From NCBI GenBank assembly GCA_035221665.1, contig CM069133.1, positions 96,596,001 through 96,660,000 on the forward strand: a DNA stretch of 64,000 nt. Direction: 5' to 3'. Shown here in pieces: positions 15,716 through 56,737 of the stretch; position 1 is the first letter of the stretch; each line of letters starts with the position of its first letter. The notes beneath the pieces were generated by a model. The model had not been told where the DNA came from. It saw only the letters and a program-made list of their open reading frames with translations, and made no database searches. Source of the DNA: Okamejei kenojei. Its lineage: Eukaryota. Both the position numbers and the translations under genes were made by a program.

Positions 15716-16154
15716 GACAGGCCATTTAGTCAGACTGCTATGCCTTTCAATAAGATCATGATCGATCTTTTGTGTAGGAAAAAACTGTAGATGCAAATTT
15801 AAATCGAAGTAGACATTTCAGGTCAAGACCCTTCTTCAGACTGAAGGAATGTCTCAACCCGAAACTTAACCCATTCCTTCTCTTCAAAGATTCTGCCCGT
15901 CCCGCTGAGTTGCTCCAGCATTTTATGTTTACCTATGGTCGATCTTTTATTTTTTCCTCAACTAACCACATTTCACTTAAAAGAATCATCTCAAAAGCAA
16001 ATGTTCTCTTGCTTTCTGTCTTGATTTATGATTTGAATAGCCAACATTCCATTTTGACTCTGAAACTCTGATTTTAAACACCCTTTTGCGAGCACAATCA
16101 TTAACTCCTTATCTACCTTGTCAAGTCCTTTAAGAATGTTCTGTTTCAGCAAGA

Positions 16155-17008
16155 ATGTTTCTATAGATGAGGCTCTCACCAGGGTCTCTTCTATACCCCG
16201 TAACTCTGCTCTCACTCCCCATCCCCCCACTCGTAACAAGGGCAGAGTCCCTCTTGTCCTCACCTTCCGCCCTACAAGCCGTCACATACAACAAATAATC
16301 CAACATTTTGGCTACCTCCAACGGGATGCAAACCACTGGCCACATCTTCCCATCTCCTCCCCTTTCAGCTTTCCGCAGAGATCACTCCCTCCTTAACTCC
16401 CTGGTCAAATCGTCCCTTCCCACCCAAACCACCCCCTCTCCTGACACTTTCCCTTGTAACTGCAGGAAATGTTACACTTGTCGCTTTAGCTCCCCCTTGA
16501 CTCCATTCAAGGACCCAGGCAGTCTTTCCAGGTGCAGCAGAAGTTCACCTGCACCTCCTCCAACCTCATCTATTGCATCCGCTGTCCTAGATGTCAACTG
16601 CCTTACATTGATGAGACCAAGCGTAGGCTTGGCGATTGCTTCGGCGAACACCTCAGGTCGGTTCGCAATAACCAACCTGATCTTCCGGTAGCTCAGCACT
16701 TCAACTCCCCCTCCCATTCTGAATTCAACCTTTCAGTCCTGGGCCTCCTCCATGGCCAGAGTGAGGCCCACCATAAATTGGAGGAGCAGCACTTCATATT
16801 TTGTTTGGGTAGTTTACACCCCAGCGGTATGAACATTGACCTCCAATTTCACGTAGTCCCTGTTTTCTCCTTCTTTGCCCCTCCCCTTCCCAGCTCTCCC
16901 ACAGCTCACTGCCTCCACCTTTTCCTTTCCTCCTGCCCACCCCCCACCCCCACTTCGCTCCGTAGATGCTGCCCCATCCGCTGAGTTTCTCCAGCATTTT
17001 TGTCTACC
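16155..17008 (+). mobile_element. Penelope-like element 3' fragment (GIY-YIG endonuclease plus terminal repeat)
   Basis: Encodes FTCTSSNLIYCIRC..C.LPYIDETKRRLGD..EHLRS..PVAQHFN..LEEQHFIFCLGSLHPSGMN. Flanked by a ~16-bp TSD TTCTGTTTCAGYAAGA (16139-16154 and 17009-17024). Confidence 0.88.
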
Positions 17009-17879
17009 TTCTGTTTCAGTAAGATCAGTTCTAATTTTTCAAACAGAGTGTCTGGGTTCAGACCCTTTCATCTCACCTTGAACGCTGAGCCTCCTTTCCA
17101 GGAATTGAAGCAGATGAACCTAGATTACACTGTCATAACTTCAACTCTATCCTTCTTTGTGGCCAGAGTTACAGACAAATTTAACATTGCCAGAGTTCTA
17201 TACAACTGGGACAAAGTGTTTCTGCAATTGGACTCACATCTTTTCTAATAAAGACTTAAGACTACTTCCCTTCATAAATGCTTGGTATACCTATTATTAT
17301 TTTCCCATGTACCCTCCGACCACTTCCTTCATATCAGATTACAGCATTTTCCCCATAGCTGATATTTAAATAACCTACATATAGCTCCTCATTTTCTTGC
17401 TTCTTCCTTTCTTAAAAAGGGAGGTTACATTTGCTATCATCCAATCTGTGCAAGCTATTCTAGAATCTATGGACTCTTGGAAGATACAACTAAGACCTTC
17501 ACTGTCTCCATTGTCACCTGCTTCAATACGTTATGATGCACGTCATCAGGACCTAGGGATTAATTGCATTTCAACCTCATTCACGTATGGAAAGTCATCC
17601 CATTCTTATTCATTACAGTAATTTATTTGTGTTCAACATTCAAAGACCCATTGTTCTCCATCAAATATTAACACTAAACTTTGGTTTAATTTATCAGTTA
17701 TTAGCTTATCTACTGATATAATTTATCCTATCACAGTCTGTCAGTGATGCACATGGACTTTAGCTAGATTTATTTTCTATTTACAGTCAATAGAAACAGT
17801 GAAATCTACTTTTATATTTCCTATGAGCCGCCTCTTATTTTCTACATGCCCCGTTTAGTATCTACATGCCCCTTCTCAG

Positions 17880-19092
17880 CGGTCCCTTGCAGTCAGAAAC
17901 AGATGAATTGGTCATGGGGAACAAGGACATGGCAGAACAATTGAATAACTACTTTGGTTTTGTCTTCACTAAGGAAGACATAAATAATCTGCCGGAAATA
18001 GCAGGGGACCGGGGGTCAAATGAGATGGAGGAACTGAGTGAAATGCAGGTTAGCCAGGAAGCGGTGTTAGGTAAATTGAATGGATTGAAGGCTGATAAAT
18101 CCCCAGGGCAATATAGGCTGCATCCCAGAGTACTTAAGGAAGCAGCCCCAGAAATAGTGGATGCATTAGTGATAATTTTTCAAAACTCTTTAGATTCTGG
18201 AGTAGTTCCTGAGGATTGGAGAGTAGTTAATGTAACCCCACTTTTTAAAAAGGGAGGGAGGGAGAAAACGGGGAATTACAGACCAGTTAGTCTAACATCG
18301 GTAGTGGGGAAACTGCGAGAGTCAGTTATTAAAGATGGGATAGCAGCAGATTTGGAAAGTGGTGAAATCATTGGACAAAGTCAGGATGGATTTATGAAAG
18401 GTAAATCATCTCTGACGAATCTTATAGAATTTTTGAGGATGTAACTAGTAGAGTGGATAAGGGAGAACCAGTGGATGTGTTATATCTGGACTTTCAGAAG
18501 GCTTTCGACAAGGTCCCACATAAGAGATTAGTATGCAAACTTAAAGCACACGGTATTGGGGCTTCAGTATTGATGTGGATAGAGAACTGACTGGCAGACA
18601 GGAAGCAAAGAGTAGGAGTAAACGGGTCATTTTCAGAATGGCAGGCAATGACTAGTGGGGTACTGCAAGGCTCGGTGCTGGGACCGCAGCTATTTACAAT
18701 ATATATTAATGATTTGGACGAGGGAATTGAATGCAACATCTCCAAGTTTGCGGATAACATGAAGTTGGGAGGCAGTGTTAGCTGTGAGGTGGATGCTAGG
18801 AGGCTGCAAGGTGACTTGGATAGGTCTTTTAGGACTGATTTTAGAAAAACATTTTTCACACAGAGAGTGGTGAATCTCTGGAATTCTCTGCCACAGAAGG
18901 CAGTTGAGGCCAGTTCATTGGCTATATTTAAGAGGGAGTTAGATGTGGCCCTTGCGGCTAAGGGGATCAGGGGGTATGGAGAGAAGGCAGGTACGGGATA
19001 CTGAGTTGGATTAGCCATGATCATATTGAATGGCGGTGCAGGCTCAAAGGGCCAAATGGCCTACTCCTGCACCTATTTTCTATGTTTCTATT
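17880..19092 (+). mobile_element. CR1 LINE ORF2 fragment with internal deletion and intact 3' end
   Basis: Motifs KSPG, VPEDWRV.NVTPLFKKG, NYRPVSLTSVVGK, YLDFQKAFDKVPH, SGVLQGSVLGP, SKFADNMKL, FFTQRVVNLWNSLP; (TTTCTATG)n-like tail. Confidence 0.92.
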
Positions 19093-20605
19093 TCTAAAAG
19101 GAACAGTTTTCTTTCTCACCAATACCTGTACCCATGTCACAAGGATTTAATTCATTTTGCAACGCAATATTCTTTGTGCCTTGTAGTCAATGGTCTGACC
19201 AATTTGCACGTAGCTCGGTAAGCAATAGTGAGATTGTTACCTTTGCGATTCCAATTTTTAATATGGATACCAACTGTTCATGTCCCTTCAGCAGAACATC
19301 CTGCTCAGTTTTATCTATGCTATTGCTTTCCACATAAATCACAACAATGGATCACTCCCTCTCCAATTCCTAGTTCCTTCATGGGGTTGATGTTTTCACA
19401 TTCATCAGCAATTGTAAACTAAATCACCAACTCTCTATTATGCATTATGATAAAATAAATGGAAGATTAAATTATTATATTAAGTGCAAAACATCAAATA
19501 ACATTTTAGTGAAAGGTTGCACTATGAAACACAGCTATTAATGATTAAAATAATGAACCAGGAACAAATCATTATCTAACATCAATTTCAGTACATCATT
19601 CCATGACAAAAAAATCCACAAGGCCACAGAGCTGTTTAAAATGGAGAGACTCAGCATGAGTCTAAGTATTGCTTCTGGCCAGTCCTGCTACACTTATTTG
19701 GTCGCTGGTATTGGTAATGATTTTGGAATTTGTTCAAAGAAACTGAGGAGAATGGAGAACCGTTCTTCGCCACTGATTCATTGCCTGGACATTGAGAACA
19801 CTGGGGCTGTTTCAGCATGGCTGTTGGATCTAATAGTGCATTCATAACAAATCCTCAGACACTGTGACCATCATGATCAAGCGTGTATGAAACTAATTAC
19901 AGAAACAAAGGCTGAGGTTTCTGAGCCACTTCTCTTTGTACAGAAACCATCCAGGAACAAGCAGGAATCGACCTTTCATTCTCCTTGCACCAGATTTAAT
20001 ATTCAGAGAAAATGCTGCAATTTTGGAAACTCTAATAATGACGAGCCTTAAACCAGTAAAAATATTTTAATTAATTGTAAATAGGAGTTAATATTTCTTT
20101 ATCATCAATATCGTGGTCTTTTCTACTATTAAAAAATTAATGGTTGATGTAACCAAAATTACCGTAGGACTTGATAATCATCAACAATTGCTAGAAAAAA
20201 ACTCAATCAAATCAGCTTACACAGCAAACCTTGTCCCCAGTAACCAAGTTCCGTCTTATCACAAATGAAAATGTACAAGTTATTGCATTTCACTCCATTA
20301 CAGGACCTTTCCCCTGTCTCATTCTTCCAAGCCATCACTGCTGCACCGTAAACAAAGGCGTCGTGCTTTGTGGGATGCATATTTTTTTTGAAAAAAAATG
20401 CTTCAACTGAAGAAGACACATGTTTGTAGGAAAACATAAGCTGGGTAATATAGTCTTCTAATCAGCAGATTGGGAACAATAGTAGAAGGCAGCACTTGAA
20501 ATTTAAAATAGAAGACTACTAATTGCTACCTTTTAGTAGGAAGAGCAAGGGGAAACAATGTAAACCAAAGGACACAATTGAAATGGGTTACAACATTGGA
20601 TACAT

Positions 20606-20885
20606 TTAGTTTGGTTTATAGATACATTGTGGAAACAGATCCTTCAGCCCATCGAGTCCGTACTGACCAACACACTAATTCTATCGTACACACTGGGGAC
20701 AATTTACTGAAGCCAATTAACCTACAGACCTGCACGTCTTTGGAATGTGGGAGGAAACCGGAGGACATGGAGAAAACCCACATGGTCACTGGGAAATGCG
20801 CAAACTCCGCACAGACAGCACCCATAGTCAGAATCAAATGTGGGTCTCTGGTGCTGTGAGGCAGTAACTCTACCACTGCACACCC
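20606..20885 (-). mobile_element. tRNA-derived V-SINE (HE1-like)
   Basis: A-box-like GCAGTGGTAGAG and V-domain TCCGGTTTCCTCCCACATTCCAAAGAC. Confidence 0.75.
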
Positions 20886-21894
20886 CCTGTAACAGGGCAG
20901 ATTGAGAACATGGTTTAAAAAAACACACACGATTCCGAGTTTTACAAATGAGACAAGGAAAGCAAGAGAATGTGTCTCAATGAATCTTTGTGGTTTGGCC
21001 TCATTATTATGTAAATTTCACTTTATGAATGAGGTTCTGAGGGAGGGCAGAGAAGATTTATGCCAAGAATGAGGGACTTTAGTGGAGTGAATGGACTAGA
21101 GAAGCTGGTTTATCTTCCTCAGAACAGTGGACATTGAGTTGAGATCTTCCTCTTGGTCAAGGTCGAGAACCAGAGGACTTGAAATTAAAATGAATGGCAA
21201 AAGAACCAAAAGCAATATGAGGAAACTGTTTTTTAAAAGGTAGTTTGGAATGAATTGCTGGGAGTGGAGTTGGATTCAGTTCAGCATTCAAACAGAACTA
21301 CATAAGTAGAACATGTCGTTCTACATAACCTACATAAGTAGGAAAACAAATGCAGATCTACGGGGAGAGGAAGGAGAAATTGAAGTACCTGATGATTTTG
21401 ATGCTCCAAATTGCCTAGCTATTTATTGCAAAATTTCTGTGATTCTCCATGTAAGTTGAAGAGGAGCCTGCAGGTAATTGTGTTTCCATGCGCTTGCTTT
21501 CTTTGATGGTAGAGGTATGGATTGAGGTGGTGCTTTCAAAAAGGCTGTGGTGAGTAAATGCAGTACATGTTGCAAATTATGGTCAATTATGGAAAAAGTG
21601 AGCGTAGAGGGTGGTATATATATTTGGGATGCCAATCAAACAGATTGTTTTATCCTGGACAGTATTAATTGTATGGTTTTAATTTTATGTTTTTGTCAAG
21701 TCTAGAATATTTAATTGATTTAATTAATCTGCTGATTTAATTGATATACAGTATGTACTGTGAGTGGAACAATGACATTTTCACTTGCCGCTGTTTTACA
21801 GGCACATTAAACACGACACAACAAATAAATATACAATACTAGTTATATTTGGCATACCTAAACATAATGGCTCAGGCCAAAGTAGGGGATGGCA

Positions 21895-22176
21895 TGGAGG
21901 CAGAGCGGTATAGTTGTTGTCTTACAGCACCAAAACCCAGGTTCAATCCTGACTATGGGTACTGTTTGCATGGAGTTTGTATGTTCTCTGTGTGACGGTG
22001 TGTGTTCTGCTCCGGGTGCTCCGGCTTCCTCCCACACTCCAAAGACCTACATGTTTGTAGGTTAATTGGCTTTGGAAAAAATTGTAAATTGTTCCTTGTG
22101 TGTTGTGTAGTGCTAGTCGGTGTGGACTCGGTGGGCCGAAGGATCTGTTTCCACACAGTAACTCAAAACTAAACTA
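21895..22176 (+). mobile_element. V-SINE (HE1-like)
   Basis: B-box GGTTCAATCC, V-domain, (AAACT)n tail. Confidence 0.75.
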
Positions 22177-22227
22177 ATGTAAACTACATAGCACAACCTT
22201 ATACTGCGCAGTAGTTCAGTGCTGAGG

Positions 22228-22965: not shown

Positions 22966-23910
22966 TGTGATCGATTGAGGTAGAATTGTTAGTTGGTCCA
23001 TTTTTGAAACTGGAAATGGCATAGCCATTTGATGACACATATCCTCACCAGACTCCACGCAAATGCTAGTATTTGGGAACATTCTAAAAAACTTCCTCAT
23101 ATCTGTTCCACTTTGGATATCCAGCCACAGATGCAGCAAAACAAGAAGACTTTACAATAAAGAATGATTTTGCAGAATACAGAAGCAGAAGAAGCAGGCT
23201 TTGTTTGTGTTTTAGTAGCAGTCTGTCACCATCTGTTTAATGACCATTATTACAGCTGCTGAATGCTTATTTTCACTGGGCTGAATGCCAAAGTGGCATC
23301 AGGGCCTTACTAGAGGCATAGAATTGATTTGCATTTCTAAGTTGCCTCTTGCTTGAGCTGGACAGTGATCCTGCTCTTCCATGACCAGTCTGATCGTGAT
23401 TAAGGTAATGTAAATATTGCTTCATGATCTTTTTTCAACCTTAACCAAAAAAAGTAATCAGCACATCTGGGAATCCCTCCAGAGCCGTGTTATTTGTCTG
23501 GTTCCTGCTGTTTGTTAATTATCTGCAGCACGTAAAACTCATCACCACTTAGAATCAGAGAGTCATACTGCATGGAAGTTGGCCTTTTGGTCCAACTTGT
23601 CCACACCGGCCAAGATGTCCCATTTGCCCATGTTTGGCCCACATACTTCTAAACCTTTTCTATCTATGTACCTGTCCAAGTGCCCTTTAAATGCTGTCAT
23701 AGATCCCTGCCTTTTATTACAATTACCTCCACTGGCAACTTGTTCCATATAAACCCCACCTTCTGAGTGAAAAAGCTGCCCCTCAGGTTCCTATTAAATC
23801 TTGCCACTCTCATCTTAAAATATGTCCTCTGATTCTTGATTTCCTTCTCTCAGTAATACAAAAGTCTTGTTTGCCACTCTATCTACCTGTGATGCTACTT
23901 TCAGGAACTA

Positions 23911-25532
23911 CAGTGGCTTGCAAAAGTATTCATACCCCTTGAGCTTTTCCACATTTTGTCACGTTACAACCACAAACGTAAATGTATTTTATTAGGATTT
24001 TATGTGATAGACCAACACAAAGTGGCGCATAATTGTGAAGTGGAAGGAAAATGATACATGGTTTTCAAATCTTTTTACAAATAAAAAACTGAAAAGTGTG
24101 GCGTGCAAAAGTATTCAGCCCCATTTACTCCGATACCCCTAAATAAAATCCAGTGCAACCAATTGCCTTCAGAAGTCACCTAATTAGTAAATAGAGTCCA
24201 CTTGTGTGTAATCTAATCTCAGTATACATACAGCTGTTCTGTGAAGGCCTCAGAGGTTTGTTAGAGAACATTAGTGAACAAACAATGTTCCTTGGGCATC
24301 ATGAAACCCAAGGAACACACCAGACAGGTCAGGGATAAAGTTGTGGAGAAGTTTAAAGCAGGGTTAGGTTATAAAAAAAAAATCCCAAGCTTTGAACATC
24401 TCACGGAGCACTGTTCAATCCATCATCCGAAAATGGAAAGAGTATGGCACAACTGCAAACCTACCAAGACATGGCCGTCCACCTAAACTGACAGGCCGGG
24501 CAAGGAGAGCATTGATCAGAGAAGCAGCCAAGAGGCCCATGGTAACTCTGGAGAAGCTGCAGAGATCCACAACTCAGGTGGGAGATTCTGTCCACAGGAC
24601 AACTATTAGTCGTGCACTCCACAAATTGGGTCTTTATGGAAGAGTGGCAAGAAGAAAGCCAATGTTGAAACAAAGCCATAAGAAGTCCCATTTGCAGTTT
24701 GCCACAAGCCATGTGGGGGACACAGCAAACATGTGGAGGAAGGTGCTCTGGTCTGATGAGACCAAAATTGAAGTTTTTGGCATAAATGCAAAACGCTATG
24801 TGTGGTGGAAAACTAACACTGCACATCACCCTGAACACACCATCCCCATTGTGAAACATGGTGGTGGCAGCATCATGCTGTGGGGATGCTTTTCTTCAGT
24901 AGGGACAGGGAAGCTGGTCAGAGTTTATGGGAAGATGGATGGAGCCAAATACAGGGCAATCTTGGAAGAAAACCTGTTAGAGTCTGCAAAAGACTTGAGA
25001 CTGGGGCAGAGGTTCACCTTCCAGCAGGACAACAACCCTAAACATACAGCCAGAGCTAAAAATGGAATGGTTTAGATCAAAGCATATTCATGTGTTAGAA
25101 TGGCCCAGTCAAAGTCCACACCTAAATCCAATTGAGAAGATCTGGCAAGACTTGACAATTGCTGTTCACAGACGCTCTCCATCCAATCCGACTGAGCTTG
25201 AGCTATTTTGCAAAGAAGAATGGGCAGAAATTTCAGTCTCTAGATGTGCAAAGCTGGTAGAGACATACCCCAAAAGACTTGCAGCTGTAATTGCAGCGAA
25301 AGGTGGTTCTACAAAGTATTGACTCAGGGGGGCTTTTGCACGCCACATTTTCCATTTTTTATTTGTAATAAAATTTGGAAACCATGTATCATTTTCCTTC
25401 CACTTCACAATTATCCACCACTTTGTGTTGGTCTATCACATAACATCCCAATAAAATACATTTATGTTTGTGTTTCTAACGTGACAAAATGTGGAAAAGT
25501 TCAAGGGGTATGAATACTTTTGCAAGCCACTG
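23911..25532 (+). mobile_element. Tc1 (DD34E) DNA transposon, full length, 1622 bp
   Basis: TA TSDs (23909-10 and 25533-34). ~210-bp TIRs begin CAGTGGCTTGCAAAAGTATTCATACCCCTTGA. Inserted into a minus-strand CR1 fragment. Confidence 0.97.
24301..25322 (+). pseudogene. Tc1 transposase with two +1 frameshifts
   Basis: Motifs MKPKEH, GRPPKL, ARRKP, WSDETK, KHGGGSIMLWGCF, QQD-34aa-E, GGSTKY. Extra A in the runs at ~24373-24382 and ~25057-25061. Confidence 0.93.
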
Positions 25533-25811
25533 TATGTACCTCTACTCCTAGATTTCAGATGTGCAACATTCCCCAGGGCTCCAACATTCACTGCAAATGT
25601 TCTGCTCTGGATTCACTTCCCAAAATGTATCTTCTCACATTTATCGGCATTAAGCATTAGCCATTCCTCAGCCGAGCCAAGCTCTCCTATCTCTTCTGAG
25701 CATTGTCTGCATTAACCCATGAACCATGCTTGAGCAGAGACCACAAAGAAAGTAAACCAGTGGGATTATGATTAGCCTATAGACTAGAATTTATATGGTA
25801 ATCATTCCCCG

Positions 25812-28345: not shown

Positions 28346-29989
28346 CCCAACAACTCCTACTAACTTCCATCAGTGTGCAGAGTCTTTTCCTGAAAGTGTC
28401 TCGACCCAGGAAACATTGAGTATCGCACTTGTTGAAATGGAAAAGGGCCAAATGCACATATTTTCAATTGACCACATTAAATATTCATTTGGAAGCCTGC
28501 TGACAGATGAGGGCAGGAATCAGTATGCAGCTGAAGCTCTTACAAATGTGTGCTGCCATTTAAAGGAGCCCCTCATGAATCATTGCAAATACAAGGGCCA
28601 GACCTCTGAGCACGCTTCCTTAATATCCTTACAACCATTGTCAATCCTTTTGCAAGAAAGTGTTGCAAAGGAGAACTGACTTCACACTTTCTTGGTCACA
28701 CTGTGGAACATAGAAAGTAAGGCTAAAATAGCCCAGCCCCTATTTTTTTTTCTACGACTGATATCAAGATATAATTTGTCTAAACATATTGCAGTACATT
28801 CATCGGTTACCCTTTATTGTAAATAACATCACTCCAGTTACTTACAATATACAAGTTATATCAGTGTGACATCAATTTTTTCACAAACACTCCACAATGA
28901 GCAAGTCTGAGCAGCATCCAGCTCTGTGTGGAACTGAATGAGGGTTTAAACTCATTGCCTTTCCCAGAGAGTCTTTGTTATGGCTGCACGAAGCTTCAAT
29001 GAATCCCTCACCATGTAATTCTGGACCTTGGAATGTGCTTGCCTGTGATATTCAGTTGCTGACGTCAAGTTACTGCATCTTGCATTAAGTTGAGCATGTT
29101 CCAGTGACAGGTAGACAAAAAATGCTGGAGTAACTCAGCGGGACAGGCAGCATCTCTGGAGAGAAGGAACGGGTGACGTTTTGGTCAGACTTTGTTTGTC
29201 TCATTGCGGGATCCTGGGAATTGCCTGTGGAGCACAGAATCATGTCACAGGAAACCGTGGAATGGATTTCAATCCAGTATCTTCTTGACAAGTGTACAGT
29301 TTAGAAAGATATGTTTCATCCCACCTGCAGCCGCTTTGAGACTCCGGCTGTCCATGAGGGATCTAACAAGGAAAGGTCTTTTCACCAACAGCCAAGAAAG
29401 GTCTTAGTATATACTTGAAAGTTCAGGTGAAGTGGCACGCTAACATGTAACTTCAACAGTGTTAATTGGGTTTAATTATCATATGCACCGAAAAACAATA
29501 AAATCCTTACACTGCAGTTCTACAGGCCCGTAAACACAATACACTCAGATAAATATAATATATTTTTTTAAATCAATAAATAATAGTTTGCTTGGAGAAC
29601 CATCCAATAGGTTACACTACCTCCATTTCCTACATAATCCCAAGAACCTCCCGTGCACATCCCTGTACAATTGACTAGTGGTCAAAGATTTATTTCTGAT
29701 CGTATCAGCACCTAGTGACATTCTATAAATAGTATTATGGTTTCCAGGGTCCATGTAAAGGTGGGCATCATAAGGATCCTTGACCTGAAACATCACCCAT
29801 TCCTTCTCTCCACAGATGCTGCCAATCCCGCTGAGTTACTCCAGCATTTTGTGTCTATCTCCGATTAAACCAGCATCTGCAGTTCTTTCCCACACAGGAT
29901 CCATGTCATATTGGCTGCATGCTTCTTTCCTATCGCTTACTCTGTTTCCTCTGGATTTTAACCATTTGTAATCCCCAGATTAAATGAGG

Positions 29990-32434: not shown

Positions 32435-33410
32435 GAGATGCAGCGGTGGAGTTGCTGCTTTACAGTATCAGAGACCTGGGTTTGATCCTCACTATGGGTG
32501 CCTTCTAGACTGTGTTTGTACATTCTCCCTGTGATCGTGTGGGTTTTATCTGGATGCTCTTGTTTCCTGCCACATTCCAAAGAAGGTAGACAAAAATGCT
32601 GGAGAATGTCAGCGGGTGCGGCAGCATCTATGGAGCGGAGGAAATAGGCAACGTTTCAGGCCGATGCAGGGTGGGGGGCGGGATGAAGAAAGGATGAGGA
32701 GGAGCCAGATGGCTGAGGGAGAGCTGAGAAGGGGAGGAGACAGCAAGGGCTATCAGGTGTGAGAGGTTCACCTGCACCTCCACCAACCTCATCAGGTGCA
32801 ACAGAGGTTCACCTGCACCTCCTCCACCCTCATCCATTGCATCCGCTGCTCTAGATGTCAGCTGATCTACATCAGTGAGACCAAGCGTAGGCATGGCGAT
32901 CGTTTCACCAAACACCTCCGCTCGATCAGCATTAACCAACCTGATCTCCCTGTGGCTCAGCACTTCAACTCCCCTCCCATTCCAAATCCGACCTTTCTGT
33001 CCTGGGCCTCCTCCATTGCTAGAGTGAGCACCATCGGAAACTGGAGGAGCAGCACCTCATATTCCGCTTGGGCAGTCTGTACCCCAGTGGCCTGAAGATT
33101 GACCGCCAATTTCCGGTAGCCCTTGCTGTCTCCTCACCTTCTCAGTTCTCCCTCAGCCCTCTGGCTCCTCCTCTTCCTTTCTTCTTTCTGCCCCCCCCCC
33201 CCCCCCCCCACCCTGCATCAGTCTGAAGAAGGGTTTCAGCCGGAAACTTTGCCTATTTCCTTCGCTCCATAGATGCTGCCAGTTTCTCCAGCATTTTTGT
33301 CTACCTTCGATTTCCAGCATCTGCAGTTCCATCTTGCTTATTGAACATTCCAAAGACGTTCAGGTTTGTAAGTTAATTGGCTTCTGTACATTGCCCCTAG
33401 CGTGTAGGGT
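32435..33410 (+). mobile_element. V-SINE interrupted by a Penelope insertion
   Basis: SINE 5' part at 32435-32583; it resumes at 33345. Confidence 0.75.
32584..33344 (+). mobile_element. Penelope-like element with an inverted 5' segment and a GIY-YIG fragment
   Basis: 12-bp TSD ACATTCCAAAGA (32572-32583 and 33345-33356). Encodes FTCTSSTLIHCIRCSRCQLIYISETKRR. Terminal repeats lie in inverted orientation. Confidence 0.88.
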
Positions 33411-33569: not shown

Positions 33570-34469
33570 CTAGACTAAGTGGGACCCATTGGGTCCCATG
33601 TTGACACAGGAGGGCTGGTCCCCCAACACAATATTCCACCTCTCCAACAATTCCAATATTGGCGGCCAGTGGGGGGGGGGGGGGAACTTTCTGGAGCACT
33701 AGCATGTGTGTTGTGGGCTGAAGGAACTGGTTTCCAGGGGGCTAGCATGGACATTGTGGGCCTAATGGATTCAGTCACTCAGGGCTGGTGGGCTGGCAGA
33801 TCAGTCACTCAGGGCAAGGGGGCTGGCTGTTCCCTCGCGGCTATTCCTTGAAATTCCATTTCAAGCAGAGTGCAGGCCACCACATTCAATTTCATAGCAT
33901 TTCAAGCAGTGCAGGCCACCATATTCAATTTCATAGCATTGCAAGCAGAGTGCAGGCCACCACATTCAATTTCATAGCATTTCAGTCAGAGTGCATGTCA
34001 CCAAATTCAATTTCATAGCATTTCAAGCAGAGTGCAGGCCACCAAATTGCCAAACAACTCATTGCATTGTCATTAAGGGCTAACAAATCATTTATTGCAA
34101 GTACATTGTAGACTCACAGTTCAGTTGATTCACAACTTAGAATGACAGTTGTGGACTCTCCCTCATGATCTTCCAGAGTGACTGACTCACTTCCAGGCAT
34201 CCAAGGTTTTATAGTCCTGCCACCCCACCGGAAGGGACGTTACCTTCATCATGGTGATTGACAGGTGATAGGACTAATTAGCTGATCTCAAGATTTTTTA
34301 AACATTCATAACTTTTTTATCTTCCATCGATCGGAAAAAACCTCTGGGCTGCCTCAGAGGACTGTGAGTAAGGGCCAAAATTCATAGTGGTATATAGTAG
34401 TGTTTTTTTCTAAAATCAATATACAGCACAGACAGGAAGCGGTCAAGATTAGACTTTTAGTTATATAGA
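33570..34469 (-). mobile_element. Non-autonomous Helitron (900 bp)
   Basis: On the minus strand it begins TC(TATATAAC) and ends CTAG, inserted at A|T with no TSD. Subterminal hairpin TGGGACCC-AAT-GGGTCCCA (33580-33598). It splits a CR1 3' fragment. Confidence 0.85.
33860..34048. repeat. 41-bp minisatellite (~4.6 copies) inside the Helitron
   Basis: Unit TTCAAGCAGAGTGCAGGCCACCACATTCAATTTCATAGCAT. Confidence 0.9.
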
Positions 34470-38814: not shown

Positions 38815-39060
38815 AAACAAAAAACTGCAGATGCTGGTTTATGCCAAAGATAGCCAAAAAGTGCTAGAGTAACTCAGTGGATCGGGCAGCATCTTTGGAG
38901 AAAAATGATGAATGACATTTTGGGTTGGGACCCTTTTTCAGACCAATTAGAAATGTTCTTCAGTCTGAAGAAGGGTCCACCCTGAAATGTCACCTATCCC
39001 TTTTCTCCAGAGATGCTGCCTAACCTATTGGGTTACTCCAGCACTTTATTTCTATCTTCC
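38815..39060. mobile_element. Inverted pair of Penelope terminal repeats
   Basis: 38815-38943 is the reverse-complement homolog of 38962-39058. Confidence 0.75.
38965..38991 (+). ncRNA. Minimal type-I hammerhead ribozyme core
   Basis: CTGAAGA-AGGGT(CC)ACCCT-GAAA-T-GTC. Confidence 0.5.
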
Positions 39061-39174
39061 TTCACATTACATTGACTATTAACACAGATACAAACAATTG
39101 ATGTGTTAAACTTGATGGAGAACAGAATCCTATTTTAAGTAACACCTCCCTACTCACTCTGTCTTTCCTGTGAT

Positions 39175-39590
39175 ACCCCCACACCCATTGGGGGTGTACA
39201 TCCATTTTTCCCACCATCAACCAGTCACATTTCCCCTCCTTCGTATACTCATCTCCCATCACCGAGTCCCTCTCTTCCATTTATATCCCTTCCGCTCATT
39301 ATCTGACACACTGCTGTCTCCTGTGTCACTTACTCCACCCATCTGCCAATCCAAGACCCCTCACCTGTATCCACCTATCACTTGCCAGGCTTTGTCCCAC
39401 CCCCACCTCTCTTTTCAGGCTACAAACCACACCACTCCCCCCGCCCACTATGATCAGACTGAAAAAGGATCCCGATCTGAAATGTTGCTTGTCCTCTACT
39501 TCCAAAGATGCTGCCTGAACCGCTGAGTTCCTCCAGCACTTTGTGTTTTTGATTGAGTTTCCAGCATTTGCATTTCTTTGTATCTCTAGA
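39175..39590 (+). mobile_element. Penelope-like 3' fragment with terminal repeat
   Basis: Pyrimidine-rich 3' region, a degenerate hammerhead, and GATGCTGCCTGAACCGCTGAGTTCCTCCAGCA. Confidence 0.6.
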
Positions 39591-42539
39591 AGCAGAATTC
39601 TTCTTGATACAAAAAACGTTCACGCTTAGGCCTATATTTCACAGTGATACTTTAAATACACACATCATACACATTCATGTCTTGGTTCATGTATCCTTAA
39701 TGCGTAAGACCCTGTTGGTCCCTCATGCCGTGAATGCTCCAGTTCAGACTTTAATAAATCTCACCACCAGGTAATTTGAATATTTGTCTCAGTACTGTCA
39801 CTAATTGAATGTGTAAAGGCCAGTTTGAAAAATGCAACTATCTTTTTTTTAAGTGCAGCATTTCACTTAAGCTGGGGTGTTTTATATACATTCCTGTAAC
39901 CATTGTAGAACAGTTTTCATACTTGCCCAGAATTAAACATGAAAGCTACAACATATTATAATGGAAACTATAAAGAACTACAATGTCAGCACAAGATCTT
40001 CTTCTTCATGCGTATGGTTTCTTCTTGCATATGGCGGACCACGTGAAGGTTGCAATCTCCCACCCCAGCACAAGATTAATTTGACTTTCTGCAAGCAATC
40101 TGAGTTTCTATTTGTAAGAAAGAGTGTAATTGTACTCGTACCAATTTCTGAAAACCACGCTGAGAATGAAGATATTAATTTCCAGCAGTAAAATTCACAA
40201 TAGATCCACCACGAAAATTCATTTTCAGTCCATTCAGTAGCAGAAAAATGGAAAGAAAAGAGTGAAGCTACTGACAGCTTCAAAACTAGAAAGCAATTCC
40301 AGATCGAGTGCTTTCTATCCAAAAGCTTCTGAGATCCGATGCAGGAGATTGAGACTTGATAGATTATTATTGTTTTCTCGACACAAGGTAATGTTAAACT
40401 TTGTTGGTTGTCAAGAATTTTTCAAAGACAAGCACAGTCTCTTTGATGAACATGTTTCTCTTTGCGACCAAAATAACACATAATGATAATGTCCTGAATA
40501 CAATATGTGAGCATCAATTGTTTCTGCCCTTGTGCAGCAATAATTGGATTTTAATATGCTTGAGTACAAAAAGGATCCAAATTGTTTTTCTTTAATATGA
40601 TATTCAGCTTGCGGCAATGCAGTTCAAAAAACAACCAGATGGTTTAAACTGGATCAATGGGGAGTGAGGATTTCAACAATCTTCCGTGGATACATTGATG
40701 AGCAAAAAAAGAGAATGTCTATTGCTCATACATTAGCTTTAAAATAAGTATAGAGATGAGGAATTTTACAGTGTAACACTCAATCCGCCAACATTGCAGG
40801 ATTGCAGGTACATCACCATGGACTAGGTAGTACGCAGAAATACTAGGCGATCGGCCAAAATAAATGCTGGTCTCCTCAGAATATGTTAATAAAAGTTCAA
40901 CACCTGAATCATGACACTTTGTTTAAAGCTGCCTCAAAGAATGACTATTTGGTTACTGGTTTAACATTTAAAAAGAATCCTTTCCAGCTTCATTTGTTCG
41001 CTCAGTAAATGATTCCAAATGAAATGGGAGATTAACAGCAAGAAGGGTAGTGCATAGCTGGAGTAGCTGCTGAGGAAAGGCAAAGAAAGGGAGCGCCCAT
41101 ATGGTATTATAGCACTTGAGCCTTGGAAACACATACTTGAATTTGAGCCAGACAGAGAAGCAGTGAGTAAGGCAGTTCTGCTTGAGTGAGACAGAAGTTT
41201 GTGCATTCTGTCATGTGCTGCAGCAAGAACTGGAGGTTAAACCAGAATATATTCTCTCCCACTCTCAATCTTTCTGCAGCTCGATGGTTCCAGGCCGCTT
41301 CCAGTCAGTTTGCTTTGTGCACCTTAAATCAGATTACATTGCACAGAAGCAATCATTTAATATCTTCCATGAGGAGGCTAACAAGTAGCAAGAAAATACG
41401 TTGAAATGTTCTGGAATTGTTGGATCTTCTTATACATTGAATAATAGGCGATCCTCGCTTAATACCCCCAACTTTTTGCAAGATCGAGGATCCTCCAATA
41501 TTAAGAGATATTTGGACAGGTACATGGATAGAATAGGTTTAGAAGGATATGGGCCAAAAGCAGGCAGGTTGGACTAGTCTAGATGGCGCAGGTTGGTCAG
41601 CATACACAAGTTGGGATGAAGGGCCTCTTTCCATGCTGTATGACTCTATGTCCCATTAGCCGAATGAATAGTTTTTCTGTGCCCAACAGAACCACATAAG
41701 CCGATGACATTAACCCTAATGCTTTCAAACAGGACTATCTTCACTGTCCCTTCCATTCCATCCATACCATCCAATCAGATGCTGATTGCTCAGAGACAAG
41801 GATTCATATTGTCCAACATGGCATTTCAGAGCTTATGGTTTGGAAACACTGAAGCCCATTTTCTCATGGGAAGACAGTTTCAGATAAATTCAGAATAACT
41901 ACAATGCTATTTTTAAAAACAGATTCCCTGTCAAGATGTTGGATAACATACAGATAAGTTTGAGTATCTGACAAGTAAGAAAGTTCTGCACCACAAGGCC
42001 ACAGGTGAAAATGTGAGGTTTTCTGAGATGGCAGCACAGATAATGAAGGTAGGTAATCCCACAACACTTTAAAAGCATTTGGAGGAGGACTTGAATTGCC
42101 AAGATCTAGTAGGCTACGGACCAAGTGCTAGAAAATGGGATTAGTAGGGATAGGTTTTGATAGTCAGCATGAACATGGTGGGCCCAAGGGCCTGTTTTGG
42201 TGCTCTTTGGCTTCTTGAAAAGAGGAGCAGACTGTTGCTCCCTGCCCACCCTGCTCCAACCAAAATCATCCACATGTCATGGTGACTTAGGATCCCAGAT
42301 GTCTTTCTATCAGCCTACATTGAGGACTAGATAGCACGCAGCAAAAGCTTTTCCATGTACCTCAGTACACTAAACTGTAAACTAAACTAAACTGTAAACT
42401 GTAAATGTGTCACCACTCATTTCATATCTACACATTTTGAAACCTCTTACTCCACCCATCTTACGTCTTAAAATAATGTGCATCGTGTACCATTCCATCT
42501 ACCCCTTGCTGAAAGTCACTGTGAGAAACTCGAGAAGAG

Positions 42540-43110
42540 TCATAGTCATACAGCGTGGGAAACAGGCCCTTCAGCCCAACGTGTCCACACCACTAACATG
42601 CCCTATCTACTCCACTAGTCCTATCTGCCTGTGTTTAGCTCATCGCCCTTTAAACCTATCCTATCCATATACCTGTTTTTAAACATTGTGATAGTACCTG
42701 CCTCAACTACCTCATCTGTCAGATCATTCCTTTACCCCCCACCCTTCGTGTAAAAATGGTTGCCATTCAGGTTCCTATAAAATCTTTTCCCCCTCACCTT
42801 AAACCTATGTTCTCTGCTTCTTGGTTCCCAAACTGTGGGTAAATTACTTTGTACATTTACTCTATCTGTTCCCCTCGTGATTTTATACACTTCTACAAAA
42901 TCACTGCTCATCCTCCTGCATTCCAAGGAATAAAGTTCTAGCCTGCTCTACGTCTCCCTTTTGCTCAGACCATTGAGTCCTGACAACTTCCTCTAATTGT
43001 TCTCTGCACCATTTCCAGCATCCTTCCTACAACAGGGTGACAAAAACTGAACACAATACTCTAAATGTGGCCTCAACAATAACTTGTAGAACTGTAACTA
43101 AACATACCAA
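42540..43110 (-). mobile_element. CR1 3' fragment
   Basis: Encodes ECRRMSSDFVEVYKI...REHRFKVRGKRF. Confidence 0.78.
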
Positions 43111-43609
43111 CATTCAAGTGAGCTCTGTTTCATTAAAAAACAGTGAAAAATGCTAGTCTCAAGAGAGCAATCCGAGGCCACCTATAATAAGACGTCCACT
43201 TTAGCGGCAGATCTGGAGTAATCTGTAATTGAGCTGAAAGGGGTTATCACCACATGTAGTTGGTTGCTGTAAGAAGGAATTACAGATGCTGGTTTAAAGT
43301 GAAGATAGACACAACATGCTGGAGTAACTCAATGGGCCAGGTAACATCTCTGGAGATAAAGAATGTGACGTTTTGAGTCGAGATCCTTCATCAGACTGAG
43401 AGTCAGGAAGGGGAGTTGCAGAACTCACATCGGAGAGAGGAGAACTTCTTCTCCTCTCTCTGATGTGAGATCTGCAACCCCCCTCCTTCTTCACAGTCAA
43501 CATACCTTGAGGAGATTTTGCTGAAGAATTCCCCTATTCTCAATGCGCAAATCTCTCCCCTCTATCAAGTCTGGTAGCATTCTGTGAAAAAAAAAATTCT
43601 CATCAAATT

Positions 43610-43995
43610 AGGCAGTACAGTGTCACAGTGATAGAGCTACTGCCTCATTGAACCAGAGACCCAGGTTCGATCCTGACTACATGTGCAGTCTCTGTGGAGA
43701 TTTTGTTCCGCATGACCGCGTGAATTTTCTTTGAGTACTCAGGTTTCCTCCCACATTCCAAAGACGTGCAGGTTCATAGATTGTGTCAGAAGGAACAGTC
43801 TGAAGAAGGGTCTCGACTTGAAATGTCACCCGTTCCATCTATCCAGAGATGCTGCCTGTCCCGCTGAGTTACTCTAGCATTCTGTGTCTGCCTATCTTCA
43901 GGTTTGTAGGTTAATTGGCTTCTGCAAATTGTCCCTAGTGTGTAGGAGTAATAGTGTGTAGGGGTTATCGATGGCCAGCGTGGACTTGGTGGGCC
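43610..43995 (+). mobile_element. V-SINE interrupted by a solo Penelope terminal repeat (~43780-43897)
   Basis: B-box GGTTCGATCC and V-domain. The insert carries CTGAAGAAGGGTCTCGACTTGAAATGTC (43800-43827). Confidence 0.72.
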
Positions 43996-46484
43996 GATGT
44001 ATAATATTTGAAGATATGAGGGTTCTTACATCCCCTTAGTTACATTTCCTGTTGCTCAGATTGTAAACAAGATGCCTTCTCCTCCAGAGGCTGGTGGTCC
44101 TCCTGTATTGTTAAGATACATTGAGACATTGAGACAATGATACATAAGATACAACCTCCTGTAAAGATACATTGTGTTCCTTTACATCAAATTATTTATT
44201 TTTATCTCTATTTTAGAGTCTCCACCATGAATAATGTGTTTACCAAATGCAAGGATTGATGTAATTTAACTTAGACATTTACAGACTATTATTTTTCAAG
44301 GATGTTATCTAGTAAAACAATTACTTACGATGGTGCATGAATGTAACGTAATAATTTATTCAGAAGGCATTTAAGGGCAGTTGAAAAAAAAAGGCATTTA
44401 CTTTTAAGGCAGAGAACTGGAGATTTATGAATAATTTTCTGGGCCTTATGACTTTTAAATTATCAGTATGTCATTATTTCCTTAAACAAGATCGTGCAAG
44501 GTATTTGCAATCAAACATAATTATTTGAAATAATGTCAAATAATTCATAATGCTGAGAATCTAAAGATGTTTATTCATGAACTTATTCCTCTTTTACTCT
44601 AGGAAATCAAAATGAAAGTCAAAAACACATGGTGAAGGAAATCCCCAGGCTGCAAGTAGTAGAAAAGAAAGTGTACATGAAAGAGTGGGTTAATAGGACC
44701 AACATTATATTTTCAAAGCACGAACTGTTGTAGGAGGAAGGACTCGGCTGTTTCGGTATCTTGGGAAAGAATGCATTAGAGTAAGAAGCAGAGCAATTAC
44801 TATGATTTCTAACACGGTGAAAGGGATGCAGAGGGATGGAAGGATATCGGAAGAACAAGAAAGAGCTCAGAAATTTTAGATGAGTTGTGGTTAGAGCAAT
44901 ATCGATAACAATAGAGATACAGGAAAAGTTGCAATAGAGAAAACGAATGAAAGTGAGAGAAGGATCATTTACCAGATGTCAAGTCATTTTTTAAAATTCC
45001 CAGCATAGAAGTGCAAGCACATGCTGTACCACTAATACTGCAATTAGTTGCATTTCAGATAATAGTCTCCTCCCCAATAGACTTCCAGTCATGGCCCTCA
45101 GCCTAAAAAAATACCACATAAAAATGGTAATTAAATTATTTATAGCTGTTTTGGACTCTTTTCCATGATTTTCATAACTACCCAATTATGAAACCGTTTT
45201 TGCAATAGCTGTAAAATGTATATTTGACAGGTCTTTTTTTTTAATTAATTATCAATGATCAAGCCGACTACAGTAACTACAAGAGGTAAATTGTCATATC
45301 AGGATCAAAAGGCCAGGAAACATTTTTCAGAATAAGGTCAAAGCATAAACGGTCATCTCTAATGACAAGAATGAATAATTATGATGATCAAGTGATTGCA
45401 AATGCCTTTCAGAATATGGTCTCTGCAGTGTAATTGTCCAGTGCGGCAATGTTTTCCTGTGATGGCTTTGTCTCTGCAGGAACCCATTCCAACGTTGTTT
45501 AGTGGCCTTCAACTGCCCTCTGTTGGCATCAGTGCTCAATGACTTTCTCCAAAGACTCAGAAAATAACTGATGGATCTCATAGACAACAAACATCATCAC
45601 TGTTTATTGTATATTGTAATGCTTTGCACCAAAAGTGGAAATACTACGTTAGTATTAGTAAAGCAATTACATCACATGAAATTAAATCATTTAAGAGCTG
45701 TGAACTTGTGAGATTTCTACCTGTTATGTCGTGCTCACAATGAAATATCTAATGAAACATGGCATATTAAAACTACTGTTTAAGGAAGAACTGCAGATGC
45801 TGGAAAAATCGACGGTAGATGAAAATGCTGGAGAAACTCAGCGGGTGAGACAGCGTCTCTGAAGAATGGCCTCGACCCGAAACGTCACTTATTCCTTCGC
45901 TCCATAAATGCTGCCTCACCCGCTGAGTTTCTCCAGTGTTTTTGTCTACATTAAAACACCTTTATGTTCTTATAGATTCTGCAGTCACGGGAAAATAAGC
46001 TTTTATGAATTTAGAAAATATAATATGTAAAATGTCAAAAATATTTTAGTGAGAGAATTTTACAGCACGTTTTCTTGGAGTGCAAACAGGAAAAAACTGG
46101 AGATGCAACTGCATTTTTCAATTGTGACTTCTTTCCCAGATAAAAGATAAATCTGTGTGAAAGGGAAAAAAATGAACTGGACTATTACATTATACGTGCT
46201 TTCAAGAAGACAATAGACATGAAGCAAAATGGAAGATAGACACAAAATGCTGGAGTAATTCAGCAGGACAGGCAGCATATCTGGAGAGAAGGAATGGGTG
46301 AAGTCTTGGGTCGTTACCCTTCTTCAGACTAGAGTCAGGGAAAGGGAAACAAAGGTCTGTTAATAATAAACAAACAAGAATTACAAAATGAAATAATGAG
46401 CAGACTTAGAAGGATGAACCAAGACTACTAATGTTATGAGGGATAAGAAATAGAGCAACTTTAATCAAAGTTAAGCACAGATAT

Positions 46485-47128
46485 AAATAAAATGCTGGTG
46501 TAACTCAGTGGGACAGGCAGCATTTCTGAATAGAAAGAATGGGTGACGTTTCGGATCAAGACCCTTCGTCAGACTGAGTCAGGTGAGAGGGAGGTACAGA
46601 GATAAGGAAGTGCATGGTGTGAAAATGAGACAAAGGGGATGGAGATCAAGGAAAATGTAGAATAGATCATTGATAGCTAGGTGAATGTAACAACAAAGCA
46701 AACAGAGATAATATGTAAATTAGGACAATCAGTCTAGTCGGAGAACTGGTAATGCGGACGGGAAGGAGAGAGAGGGAAGGAAAAGGTTACTTGAAGTTAG
46801 AGGTCAATATTCATACCGCTGGGTTGTAAGCTGCCCAAGCAAAATAAGAGGTGTTATAAACAATAGACAATAGACAATAGGTGCAGGAGTAGGCCATTCA
46901 GCCCTTCGAGCCAGCACTGCCATTCAGTGTGATCATGGCTAATCATCCTCATATCCCTTGACACCATTGTCTTTAAGAGCTCTATCTCTTAATTCCTCCA
47001 ACTTGTGCTGGGCCTCACTCTGACAATGGAGGAGGCCCAGGACAGAATGGTCAGTGTGGGAATGAGTTGGGGAGTTAAAGTTTTTAGCAACAGGGAGATC
47101 AGGTAGGTTTAGGCAGACTGAGCGGACA
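46485..47128 (-). mobile_element. Penelope-like 3' fragment containing a CR1 tail insertion (~46857-46990)
   Basis: Encodes PDLPVAKNFNSPTHSHTDHSVLGLLHCQSEAQHKLEE, followed by the terminal repeat. Confidence 0.82.
46545..46572 (-). ncRNA. Minimal type-I hammerhead ribozyme core, intact
   Basis: Minus strand reads CTGACGA-A-GGGT(CTTG)ATCC-GAAA-C-GTC, with a palindromic ACGT stem III. Confidence 0.65.
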
Positions 47129-47635
47129 AAGCTAAGGTGGGCATACAATCCAATAGATCCAGTGGGTTGACATTTGGATAATGAGTTCATACCTAGCACC
47201 ATTACATTGAAAACGATGACTACAATTTCTGCACAACACACAAACAGAAAGGTCACAAAGAGATAATTGTTAAAACAATAGATTTTAAAAGGTCATCACC
47301 AGCCTTCACACCTTGATCTGCAATCTGAATCTACTCCTAAAGCACCTAAGATACAGATGGTTTGGGGTATTATTTTACTCACTATACAACAATGACCTTT
47401 TAAAAATATTTCAGAGTGCATCTAAATAGCTTTAGGGACTCTGAATTTGACCAAGGGGATATAATTTTCATGAGGGAGAAATCCTTGGAAATCTACTTTC
47501 AGCCTTGTGGAACAAATCAGTCAGTTTTATTGCGTGTGATGCTTCCACAGGCATTAAACAGGAACATTGTTATGCCAGCAACATTTTATTTAACTGGTTG
47601 AAATTGGTGGTAAACCAGTAGTATCCATTGATTTC

Positions 47636-48152
47636 TGCAGGTAGATGGGACTAGGGGAAAACAAATGGTCGGCACGGACTGGAAGGGCCGAGAGGGCCTG
47701 TTTCCGTGCTGTAATTGTTATATGGTTATATGGTTAAGTTAGGTCTTTATTCTTTGGAGCGCAGAAGGTTAAGGGGAGACTTGATTGAGGTCTTTAAAAT
47801 GAAGAAAGGGATAGACAGAGTTAATGTGGATACGTTTTTCCCATTGAGGGTAGGGAAGATTCAAACAAGAGGACATGACATGAGAATTAAGGGACAGAAG
47901 TTTCGGGATAACGTGAGGGGGAACTTCTTTACTCAGAGGGTGGTGGCTGTGTGGAATGAGCTTCCAGCAGAAGTGGTGGAGGCAGGATCGATTTTAACAT
48001 TTAAGAGTAAAGTGGATAGGTATATGGACGTGAAGGGAATGGAGGGGTATAATCTGAGTGCAGGTAGATGGGACTAGGGGAAAACAAATGGTCGGCACGG
48101 ACTGGAAGGGCCGAGAGGGCCTGTAATTGTTATATGGTTATATGGTTATATG
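47636..48152 (+). mobile_element. Two head-to-tail CR1 3' ends
   Basis: Encodes LGLYSLERRRLRGDLIEVFK...FFTQRVVAVWNELP. An identical ~65-bp block and a (TTATATGG)n tail each occur twice. Confidence 0.88.
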
Positions 48153-48277
48153 ATTTCCTTTGGGTGATAATGGGTTAAGGAATACACTACTTCTGTGTAC
48201 TTACACTTAGCAATATTTCCGAACAACAGAGAAGAAGGCCATCAGGCTTACTGTGTCTCAACCAATCCCTTTCAAAC

Positions 48278-48582
48278 GGTGGCACAGTGGTAGAGTTGCT
48301 GCCTGACAGCGCTTGCAGCACCAGAGACCCGGGTTCAATCCCGACTACGGGTGCTGTCTGTACAGAGTTTGTACGTTCTCCCCGTAACCTGCGTGGGTTT
48401 TCTCAGAGATCTTCAGTTTCCTCCCACACTCCAAAGACATACAGGTTTGAATTGGCTTGGTAAATGTAAAAATTGTCCCTAGTGGGTGTATGATAGTGCG
48501 GGGATCGCTGGTCGGCGTGGATCCGGTGGGCCAAGGGGCCTGTTTCTGCGGTGTATCTCTAAAGTAAACTGAACTAAACTAA
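48278..48582 (+). mobile_element. V-SINE (HE1-like)
   Basis: A-box TGGCACAGTGGTAGAG, B-box GGTTCAATCC, V-domain, (AAACT)n tail. Confidence 0.8.
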
Positions 48583-48601
48583 AGTCTGAAGAAACTTGAG
48601 T

Positions 48602-48629
48602 CTGAAGAAGGGTTTCGGCCCGAAACGTT
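48602..48629 (+). ncRNA. Minimal type-I hammerhead ribozyme core, intact
   Basis: CTGAAGA-A-GGGT(TTCG)GCCC-GAAA-C-GTT. Confidence 0.65.
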
Positions 48630-56697: not shown

Positions 56698-56737
56698 GTT
56701 TGAGTGGGACTCCAGTCAGCGGCCACTGGTCGTGGCA

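Follow-up and report, generated by a model that had tools for sequence, protein, structure and literature searches.

Hammerhead-bearing Penelope-like terminal repeats in Okamejei kenojei and the fixed 5' boundary of their short copies

Penelope-like elements (PLEs) are the closest relatives of telomerase reverse transcriptase (RT). The repeats at their ends have already been reported to carry hammerhead ribozymes, which are scattered through genomes as single or inverted motifs (PMC4209133). Regeneration of these terminal repeats in PLEs was described as having "no obvious mechanism" (PMC2377424), and the question is presented as still open in another account (PMC11167929). The present analysis concerns a stretch of 64,000 nucleotides from Okamejei kenojei (assembly GCA_035221665.1, contig CM069133.1, positions 96,596,001 to 96,660,000 of the forward strand), here called the window, together with loci and samples from the whole genome. 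A preliminary description of the window had proposed a dense population of Penelope terminal repeats bearing minimal type-I hammerheads with a palindromic stem III, and this identity of the units was confirmed. What the present genome newly contributes is the scale of this population and its mechanistic footprint. A literature search, with subscription journals and Repbase outside its range, found no paper on hammerheads in elasmobranchs.

In the minimal hammerheads of PLEs, which have also been reported in fish Neptune elements, there is an extra base between A9 and G10.1, a G10.1-C11.1 pair, a palindrome at 15.2-16.2 and no loop 3 (PMC4209133). These motifs are sited in the terminal repeat and occur mostly as dispersed singles or opposite-strand pairs, and the O. 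kenojei units resemble them in all of these respects (PMC4209133). The helices differ, as stem II has 7-8 bp and stem I 4-5 bp in S. mansoni, in comparison to 4 bp and 2 bp here (PMC4209133). Single motifs were called "probably truncated PLEs", and the sections of that report consulted here describe no fixed 5' boundary (PMC4209133).

Endonuclease-containing (EN+) PLEs of the Neptune type likewise share much with the elements in O. kenojei, including an RT followed by a zinc-finger linker and GIY-YIG domain, partial tandems, an inverted 5' arm under one target-site duplication (TSD), an optional tail of 30-40 nt, palindromes at inverted junctions and solo pseudo-long terminal repeats (pLTRs) (PMC8557442, PMC3846280, PMC11167929). 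In the anole element PAc, RT uses two internal start sites, uncleaved RNA and both nicked strands (PMC11167929). Retrozymes, on the other hand, are arranged in tandem, each repeat of ~150-450 bp carrying its own hammerhead (PMC7229834; bioRxiv 10.64898/2026.07.22.740005), and those of animals derive from Penelope terminal repeats (bioRxiv 10.64898/2026.07.22.740005).

Identity, abundance and predicted activity of the repeat unit

All six cores of the form CTGANGA-N-stem II-GAAA-YGT-H named in the preliminary description were recovered at the same coordinates and on the same strands (starting at 15812 and 46545 on the minus strand and at 38965, 43800, 45859 and 48602 on the plus strand), compared with a mean of 0.025 and a maximum of one core in 200 dinucleotide shuffles. 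They belong to one repeat unit of ~100 nt. The decayed copies listed beside them are also real, with 34 units found by a profile search and 31 by a refined profile, which gave no match in the reversed-sequence control. An Rfam scan of the window revealed no hammerhead among nine matches at E<=1, a result not weighed against the motif because minimal hammerheads may escape Rfam models. Only the cores at 46545 and 48602 are fully intact, keeping both G10.1-C11.1 and the ACGU palindrome. Those at 15812, 38965 and 43800 show CpG decay (C11.1>U and ACGU>AUGU), the first of these also has no stem I partner, and G10.1 is lost at 45859. Calling this unit the commonest short repeat of the window agrees with the list of repeat families, in which the other families have no separate count.

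The family majority comprises CUGAAGA, a single additional A, a stem II of 4 bp capped by a loop of 4 nt, GAAA, a loopless ACGU palindrome and a GUC or GUU triplet. Judged from its sequence, this is the minimal type-I hammerhead architecture of Cervera and de la Pena (PMC4209133). By motifs and position, the ~100-nt unit (hammerhead plus tail) is identified as the terminal repeat of Neptune-type PLEs. All 20 loci selected for their long open frames have a unit on the same strand directly after the end of the RT/GIY-YIG open reading frame (ORF), and 3 of the 31 window units likewise follow an ORF end. The unit is common to 73 ORF-to-hammerhead junctions, in which the length of the untranslated region (UTR) ranges from 81 to 283 nt. 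The ORF matches the Pfam models RVT_1 (E=2.8e-6) and GIY-YIG (E=0.002), both below cut-off, and in locus L061 it contains DKG, a CX4CX2C linker and two extra cysteines between the GIY and YIG parts. The Neptune layout consists of a CX2-5CxxC linker followed by a CCHH-type GIY-YIG, with a DKG motif (PMC8557442); the clade is assigned here from these motifs.

In full-length copies the unit also lies 5' of the ORF, and partial tandems are seen in 12 of 30 loci holding the 5' part of the ORF. An inverted 5' arm occurs at L073, where one TSD of ~15 nt surrounds the entire insertion, and likewise at 32583-33335 in the window; inverted structures were already known in PLEs (PMC3846280). Long two-armed inverted insertions with the ORF reached by both arms were observed at L079 (1813-3485), L061 and L063. 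Loci L061-L080, of a young subfamily, share a recurring antisense frame of 244-273 amino acids over the GIY-YIG region, which may only reflect shared descent. The unit has two alternative 3' ends, ~88 and ~128 nt after C3 (65 short, 38 long and 9 other among 112 copies), in agreement with the optional tail of PLEs and with the two positions at which RT starts internally in PAc (PMC11167929).

The very high copy number that had been proposed is borne out across the genome. Exact matches to a core pattern of 27 letters number 77,341, with none in the reversed control, in comparison to ~9,000 motifs in Xenopus tropicalis by a different search method (PMC4209133), and the GIY-YIG protein gave 117,810 first-look candidate matches. 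An arbitrary sample of 40 stretches of 10 kb contained 180 units in 400 kb (450/Mb), of which 14 had a complete core and a stem II of at least 3 bp. Extrapolated to the 2.76-Gb genome, this corresponds to ~1.2 million units and ~96,000 intact cores. Just 7 of the 180 units are linked to an ORF end, in agreement with the earlier impression that many copies are solo and lack an ORF; this dominance of a minimal stub, together with its fixed start point, differs from what is described for EN+ PLEs. The window itself, with 31 units in 64 kb (484/Mb), lies near the genome average, and the local enrichment implied by the preliminary description was therefore ruled out.

Stem I is only 2 bp long (U-A or U.G, then G-C) in all seven intact genome copies folded, as had been noted from the window. 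In the same seven copies the predicted probability of stem II does not exceed 0.02, since the core is predicted to pair with a downstream pyrimidine run. The drawn active dimer is predicted to lie ~20 kcal/mol above the best fold in three of three cases, so that folding disfavors cleavage as a dimer unless protein assists. Among 211 copies, each stem II pair shows at most two two-sided changes, of which only U-A to U.G recurs, and copies decay after insertion. A search for a divergent hammerhead family that might show covariation gave 5,767 matches; the 100 of these that were listed all belong to the present family and differ from it by point changes, and no divergent family was found among them. 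Core CpG positions have diverged by 23-35%, and non-CpG core divergence (7%, with a tail median of 9%) gives no clear signal of selection on genomic cores. A long-range stem I formed by an upstream CAG and a downstream CTGAG, seen by eye and in one predicted fold, was rejected, as it is not adjacent to the cleavage site. Head-to-head pairs contain two hammerhead motifs on opposite strands, and related hammerheads cleave poorly, as dimers or with the element protein (PMC4209133, PMC11167929, PMC6765202). The 2-bp stem I, the disfavored fold, the decay of copies and the poor activity of relatives make host pre-mRNA cleavage by solo copies unlikely; circular RNA production, suggested at the same time, is also considered unlikely.

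Short copies and their 5' boundary

Short copies are real insertions. TSDs of 12-25 nt were found for 27 of 55 short copies and 1 of 55 controls (6 of 61 copies were left out for want of a clear 3' end), and solo copies thus do have TSDs of their own. Many short copies are head-to-head pairs under one TSD. Among neighboring units in the arbitrary sample of 180, there are 35 head-to-head, 3 tail-to-tail and 6 tandem pairs, and perfect palindromic junctions occur at 803 sites in the genome, many with clear TSDs.

The 5' ends of these copies accumulate at (C)AGT|CTGA. Of 112 copies whose cores are intact, 61 have their 5' end no more than 9 nt from CUGA, 15 have it 15-137 nt away and 36 at least 221 nt away, and the stop rate per nucleotide is ~24-fold higher at the hammerhead edge. 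In the arbitrary sample, 88 of 111 units have less than 20 nt upstream, a short class that may be inflated by old-subfamily UTRs possibly absent from the 20-member library, and less so in the young set of 112 copies. Furthermore, 16 of the 30 loci with the 5' part of the ORF reach the hammerhead start, and 4 of those end there (one of the 4 assigned by eye). Only 3 of 211 copies start at the cleavage site, which ruled out cleaved RNA as the template of the units. The preliminary description held that solo units being only 5'-truncated Penelope copies would speak against an independent family; they do not form such a family, but their 5' ends are fixed and do not reflect random truncation.

The base before AGT in 57 solo copies is C in 34, G in 13, A in 6 and T in 4. 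G accounts for 13 of the 23 non-C bases, compared with 28% expected (p=0.004). An extra G is expected when RT copies a cap (PMC3287187), and the excess before AGT fits such copying. The evidence for an excess of untemplated G is modest.

Several additional arrangements were observed at this boundary and in the tail. At L037, L179 and L195, and in joints of assembled sequencing contigs, an internal stretch of the element directly abuts the hammerhead edge, an arrangement expected had the cDNA switched template once it arrived at the boundary. Locus L074 has one unit with a hammerhead, followed by tandem arrays (2494-2926 and 7501-7985) of a 66-bp tail piece that extends from GAAAC to the CAGCAC region; lacking the CUGA half, these arrays are minisatellites with no ribozyme. 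Matches with a 54-bp period are present in several other loci (L002, L219, L230 and L255).

Possible origins of the short copies

Most short copies probably arise when RT initiates within the tail of an mRNA that has not been cleaved and continues until it runs off the likely capped 5' end, which would lie immediately 5' of the ribozyme core. The first base of the mRNA would be the A of YCAGT, a sequence resembling an initiator, with this A lying 3 nt upstream of C3. The endonuclease would nick both strands of the target, with cDNA primed from each nick. Priming would take place at tail sites ~88 and ~128 nt downstream of C3, comparable to those of PAc in vitro (PMC11167929), and cDNA made on the 5' repeat copy would end by run-off after 90-130 nt. 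Joining of such a cDNA to the target would give a solo unit, and joining to a second cDNA, sometimes through the CAG-W-CTG palindrome, would give a head-to-head pair. Long copies would need the 3' repeat, tandem read-through or a template jump. Solo units would likely be dead ends, their hammerheads likely inactive given neutral decay, the lack of a dimer partner and the predicted competing hairpin.

Several observations weigh against this origin. The boundary is known from genomic copies and not from an RNA 5' end, and the sequencing data, from 24 runs of which most are only presumed to be RNA, are all assembled contigs, several of them probably from DNA; contigs of seven different runs were compared with the element, one set covered the ORF 5' part and the tail and missed the core, and such data cannot show starts, ends or expression. 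The templated C remains the commonest base before AGT, so that the boundary is a zone of 4-6 nt, and only 23 cases underlie the G excess, for which microhomology is a possible confounder. No TSD was found for 28 of the 55 short copies, and in a script search of the window only 7 of 16 insertions had one (7 of 200 random intervals). Old-subfamily UTRs missing from the library may add to the apparent size of the short class, as noted above. In D. virilis, the Penelope start site lies upstream of an intron and not at the hammerhead edge (PMC2377424, PMC4209133). Additionally, 12 of the 16 full-length 5' ends continue into the UTR, so that other templates are also in use.

The main rival of run-off RT, which we regard as unlikely yet worth serious consideration, is that short copies are 5'-truncated products of longer templates, produced when RT stalls strongly, or jumps to another template, on reaching the 5' edge of a hammerhead that is folded and possibly protein-bound, with the CAG-W-CTG palindrome as an aid. 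The boundary does fall on the 5' strand of stem I, microhomology is available from the palindrome at the 803 perfect junctions, heavy truncation is normal for PLEs (PMC8557442), and contig joints from many positions converge on the boundary, although this last point is weak. However, RT runs 3' to 5' and would be expected to halt at the 3' foot of the hairpin (~+40 to +48 in predicted folds), near which only 10 of 211 copies start; a stall also leaves the G excess unexplained, and most short copies have no palindromic junction. Alternatively, the UTR could be an intron with the boundary as its 3' splice site (pyrimidine tract, CAG|T) and the short copies made from spliced RNA. The UTR is indeed pyrimidine-rich and variable in length, often with GTA at the stop codon and CAG at its end, and in D. 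virilis an intron reaches as far as the 5' end of helix I (PMC4209133). The motif of the ORF end lies within 22 nt of a core in just 52 genome matches, however, of which ~4 resemble a precise join, as opposed to 77,341 intact cores; the best 15 of 44 contig joints include none of this kind, and several solo copies have a TSD ~5 nt from CTGA, leaving no room for an exon. With so few precise joins, a splice-acceptor origin was ruled out and is scarcely credible as a source of the short copies.

The preliminary description favored an independent, retrozyme-like family, and under this explanation the short units would be a non-autonomous family resembling short interspersed nuclear elements (SINEs) or retrozymes, transcribed, self-cleaving or circularizing, and copied by the Penelope protein. 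Their fixed ends and own TSDs, their huge numbers with 173 of the 180 sampled units free of an ORF-end link, and the descent of animal retrozymes from Penelope terminal repeats (bioRxiv 10.64898/2026.07.22.740005) fit such a family. Similarly, animal non-LTR retrozymes are non-coding, hammerhead-bearing kin of Penelope terminal repeats with high copy number (PMC7229834; bioRxiv 10.64898/2026.07.22.740005). In contrast to the units here, retrozymes have canonical loop-loop contacts and circular RNA products (PMC7229834; bioRxiv 10.64898/2026.07.22.740005), whereas the O. kenojei units are dispersed singles and inverted pairs with a minimal motif and no lineage of their own. Short copies are 95.1% identical to ORF- or UTR-linked copies and 95.1% identical to other short copies, and they occur in all three subfamilies. 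In addition, a tree built from 51 short copies and 27 long ones (from the 112, with 20 lacking a tail dropped and 14 intermediate ones left out) has 19 label changes as opposed to 20.2 when labels are shuffled, and 67 of 200 shuffles are as low; together with the identities, this ruled out a separate short-copy lineage. No hammerhead tandem arrays were found, as a same-strand neighbor within 500 bp was seen for 2 of 100 intact cores, the median same-strand spacing is 21 kb, and tandem pairs are as rare among the sampled units as given above. Nor do the units span from cleavage site to cleavage site, and PAc needs RNA downstream of its RT start (PMC11167929), a part absent from solo units. An independent family is thus largely refuted and very improbable.

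A broader version of the run-off origin, in which the stubs would be integrated strong-stop cDNAs, promoter and ribozyme would be one sequence and strand transfer would resemble that of LTR elements, is doubtful as a whole. Speculatively, YCA+1GT would be the mRNA initiator and the ACGT of stem III, at +27 to +30, a downstream promoter element. This presumably is also the position of the RGACGTGY downstream element, within which the ACGT would fall. Such an element is known from promoters of Drosophila Penelope and of long interspersed nuclear elements (PMC2377424). It is equally speculative that cleavage of the 3' repeat would leave a terminal redundancy of 31 nt, onto which strong-stop cDNA would jump, regenerating full copies. 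If true, each intact stub would be a portable internal RNA polymerase II promoter. Within the scope of the literature search given above, no paper describing a strong-stop origin for solo pLTRs was found.

Elements of the window and wider significance

Four head-to-head pairs were identified in the window. In the pair at 15770-15938, the minus arm has its core at 15812-15839 and an internally deleted tail, the plus arm spans 15836-15938, the junction is a CAG-W-CTG palindrome, and a 14-nt TSD with one mismatch lies at 15758 and 15935. The pair at 38815-39058 (plus-arm core 38965-38991) has both arms beginning at the hammerhead edge and a 14-nt TSD with one mismatch. No TSD was recovered for the pair at 45775-45956, whose plus-arm core is at 45859-45886 with G10.1 lost, and an old pair is located at 58443-58582. 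The solo unit at 48596-48704 (plus) has an intact core at 48602-48629 with a GUU triplet, a 5' end reading G-AGT-CTGA and a 12-nt TSD with one mismatch. Another, at 43794-43898 (plus, core 43800-43827), begins at the hammerhead edge within a SINE-like repeat, and a script search recovered no TSD.

Three copies retain part of the element. The typical insertion at 32583-33335 (plus) comprises an inverted terminal arm on the minus strand (32583-32752), the end of the GIY-YIG ORF (32784-33103), the UTR, an inactive hammerhead at 33223 (GAAACTT) and a long tail, with a 14-nt TSD with one mismatch at 32572 and 33345. A 5'-truncated copy at 16160-17012 (plus) contains the end of the RT-thumb/GIY-YIG ORF, with 65% identity to residues 444-669 of the L061 ORF by tblastn, an open frame at 16490-16984 that is the GIY-YIG end, a 3' UTR, and a terminal unit (16953-17003) from which the hammerhead is deleted. 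The ORF-linked copy at 46472-47127 (minus) has a GIY-YIG fragment (46993-47127), a UTR match of ~280 nt, an intact core at 46545-46572 and a tail.

The decayed units include 29106-29186 (minus), which starts inside stem II; 29761-29900 (plus), with a long tail and a 12-nt TSD with one mismatch; 39452-39557 (plus), with ~100 nt of UTR upstream; 43300-43399 (minus; G12>A), with ~19 nt of UTR; 46229-46331 (minus), with ~22 nt of UTR; and the solo units 50345-50435 (minus) and 61617-61723 (plus). A unit at 49430-49603 (plus) has lost stem II and retains ~100 nt of UTR. A dispersed SINE-like family is present at 22010, 32444, 33321, 43629, 48297, 52002 and 56428, and two Penelope insertions (32583-33335 and 43794-43898) lie inside its copies, close to one shared internal motif that may be a preferred target.

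About seven copies (7534-7837 and 60067-60448) are passengers in a DNA transposon and not separate insertions. This non-autonomous element at 59441-61252 (plus) carries four dead Penelope ends (60067 and 60284 on the plus strand, 60183 and 60400 on the minus) and a copper amine oxidase coding fragment (60670-60924; Cu_amine_oxid E=7.8e-19), and a partial second copy at 7477-7837 (minus) contains three unit-derived pieces. The right end of the longer copy is missing, and its 16-bp terminal inverted repeats (TIRs) and 8-bp TSD are known from sister copies. Among 20 sister loci (L256-L275), 6 have both TIRs, and all 6 have an 8-bp TSD matching at 6 or more of 8 positions; these features ruled out mobilization of the 1.8-kb composite by Penelope. 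A 23-nt internal word has 346 exact genome matches, indicating at least 346 copies. From the length of the TSD, we take the element to be of hAT type, although no transposase was seen. It resembles the multicopy Pack-TIRs of animals in its TIRs, 8-bp TSDs, captured host gene fragment and many copies, but differs in that the cargo adds four dead Penelope ends (Tan et al. 2021, PMC8277862).

Additional elements in the window include a Tc1-type DNA transposon at 23909-25534, with inverted ends of 187 nt (93%) and a transposase piece of 235 amino acids, and tandem repeats of 22 bp (56708-57029) and 41 bp (33842-34071). At 517-4500, an ORF1-like frame of 349 amino acids and ORF2 fragments gave no specific Pfam match; these are presumably the remains of an L1-like element.

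In genome annotation, these units could easily be mistaken for a SINE or retrozyme family. In combination, the fixed 5' boundary away from the cleavage site, the extra G, the two 3' ends and the two-armed insertions predict a capped transcription start at YCA+1GT and a run-off cDNA, which would account for the short Penelope copies of this genome.

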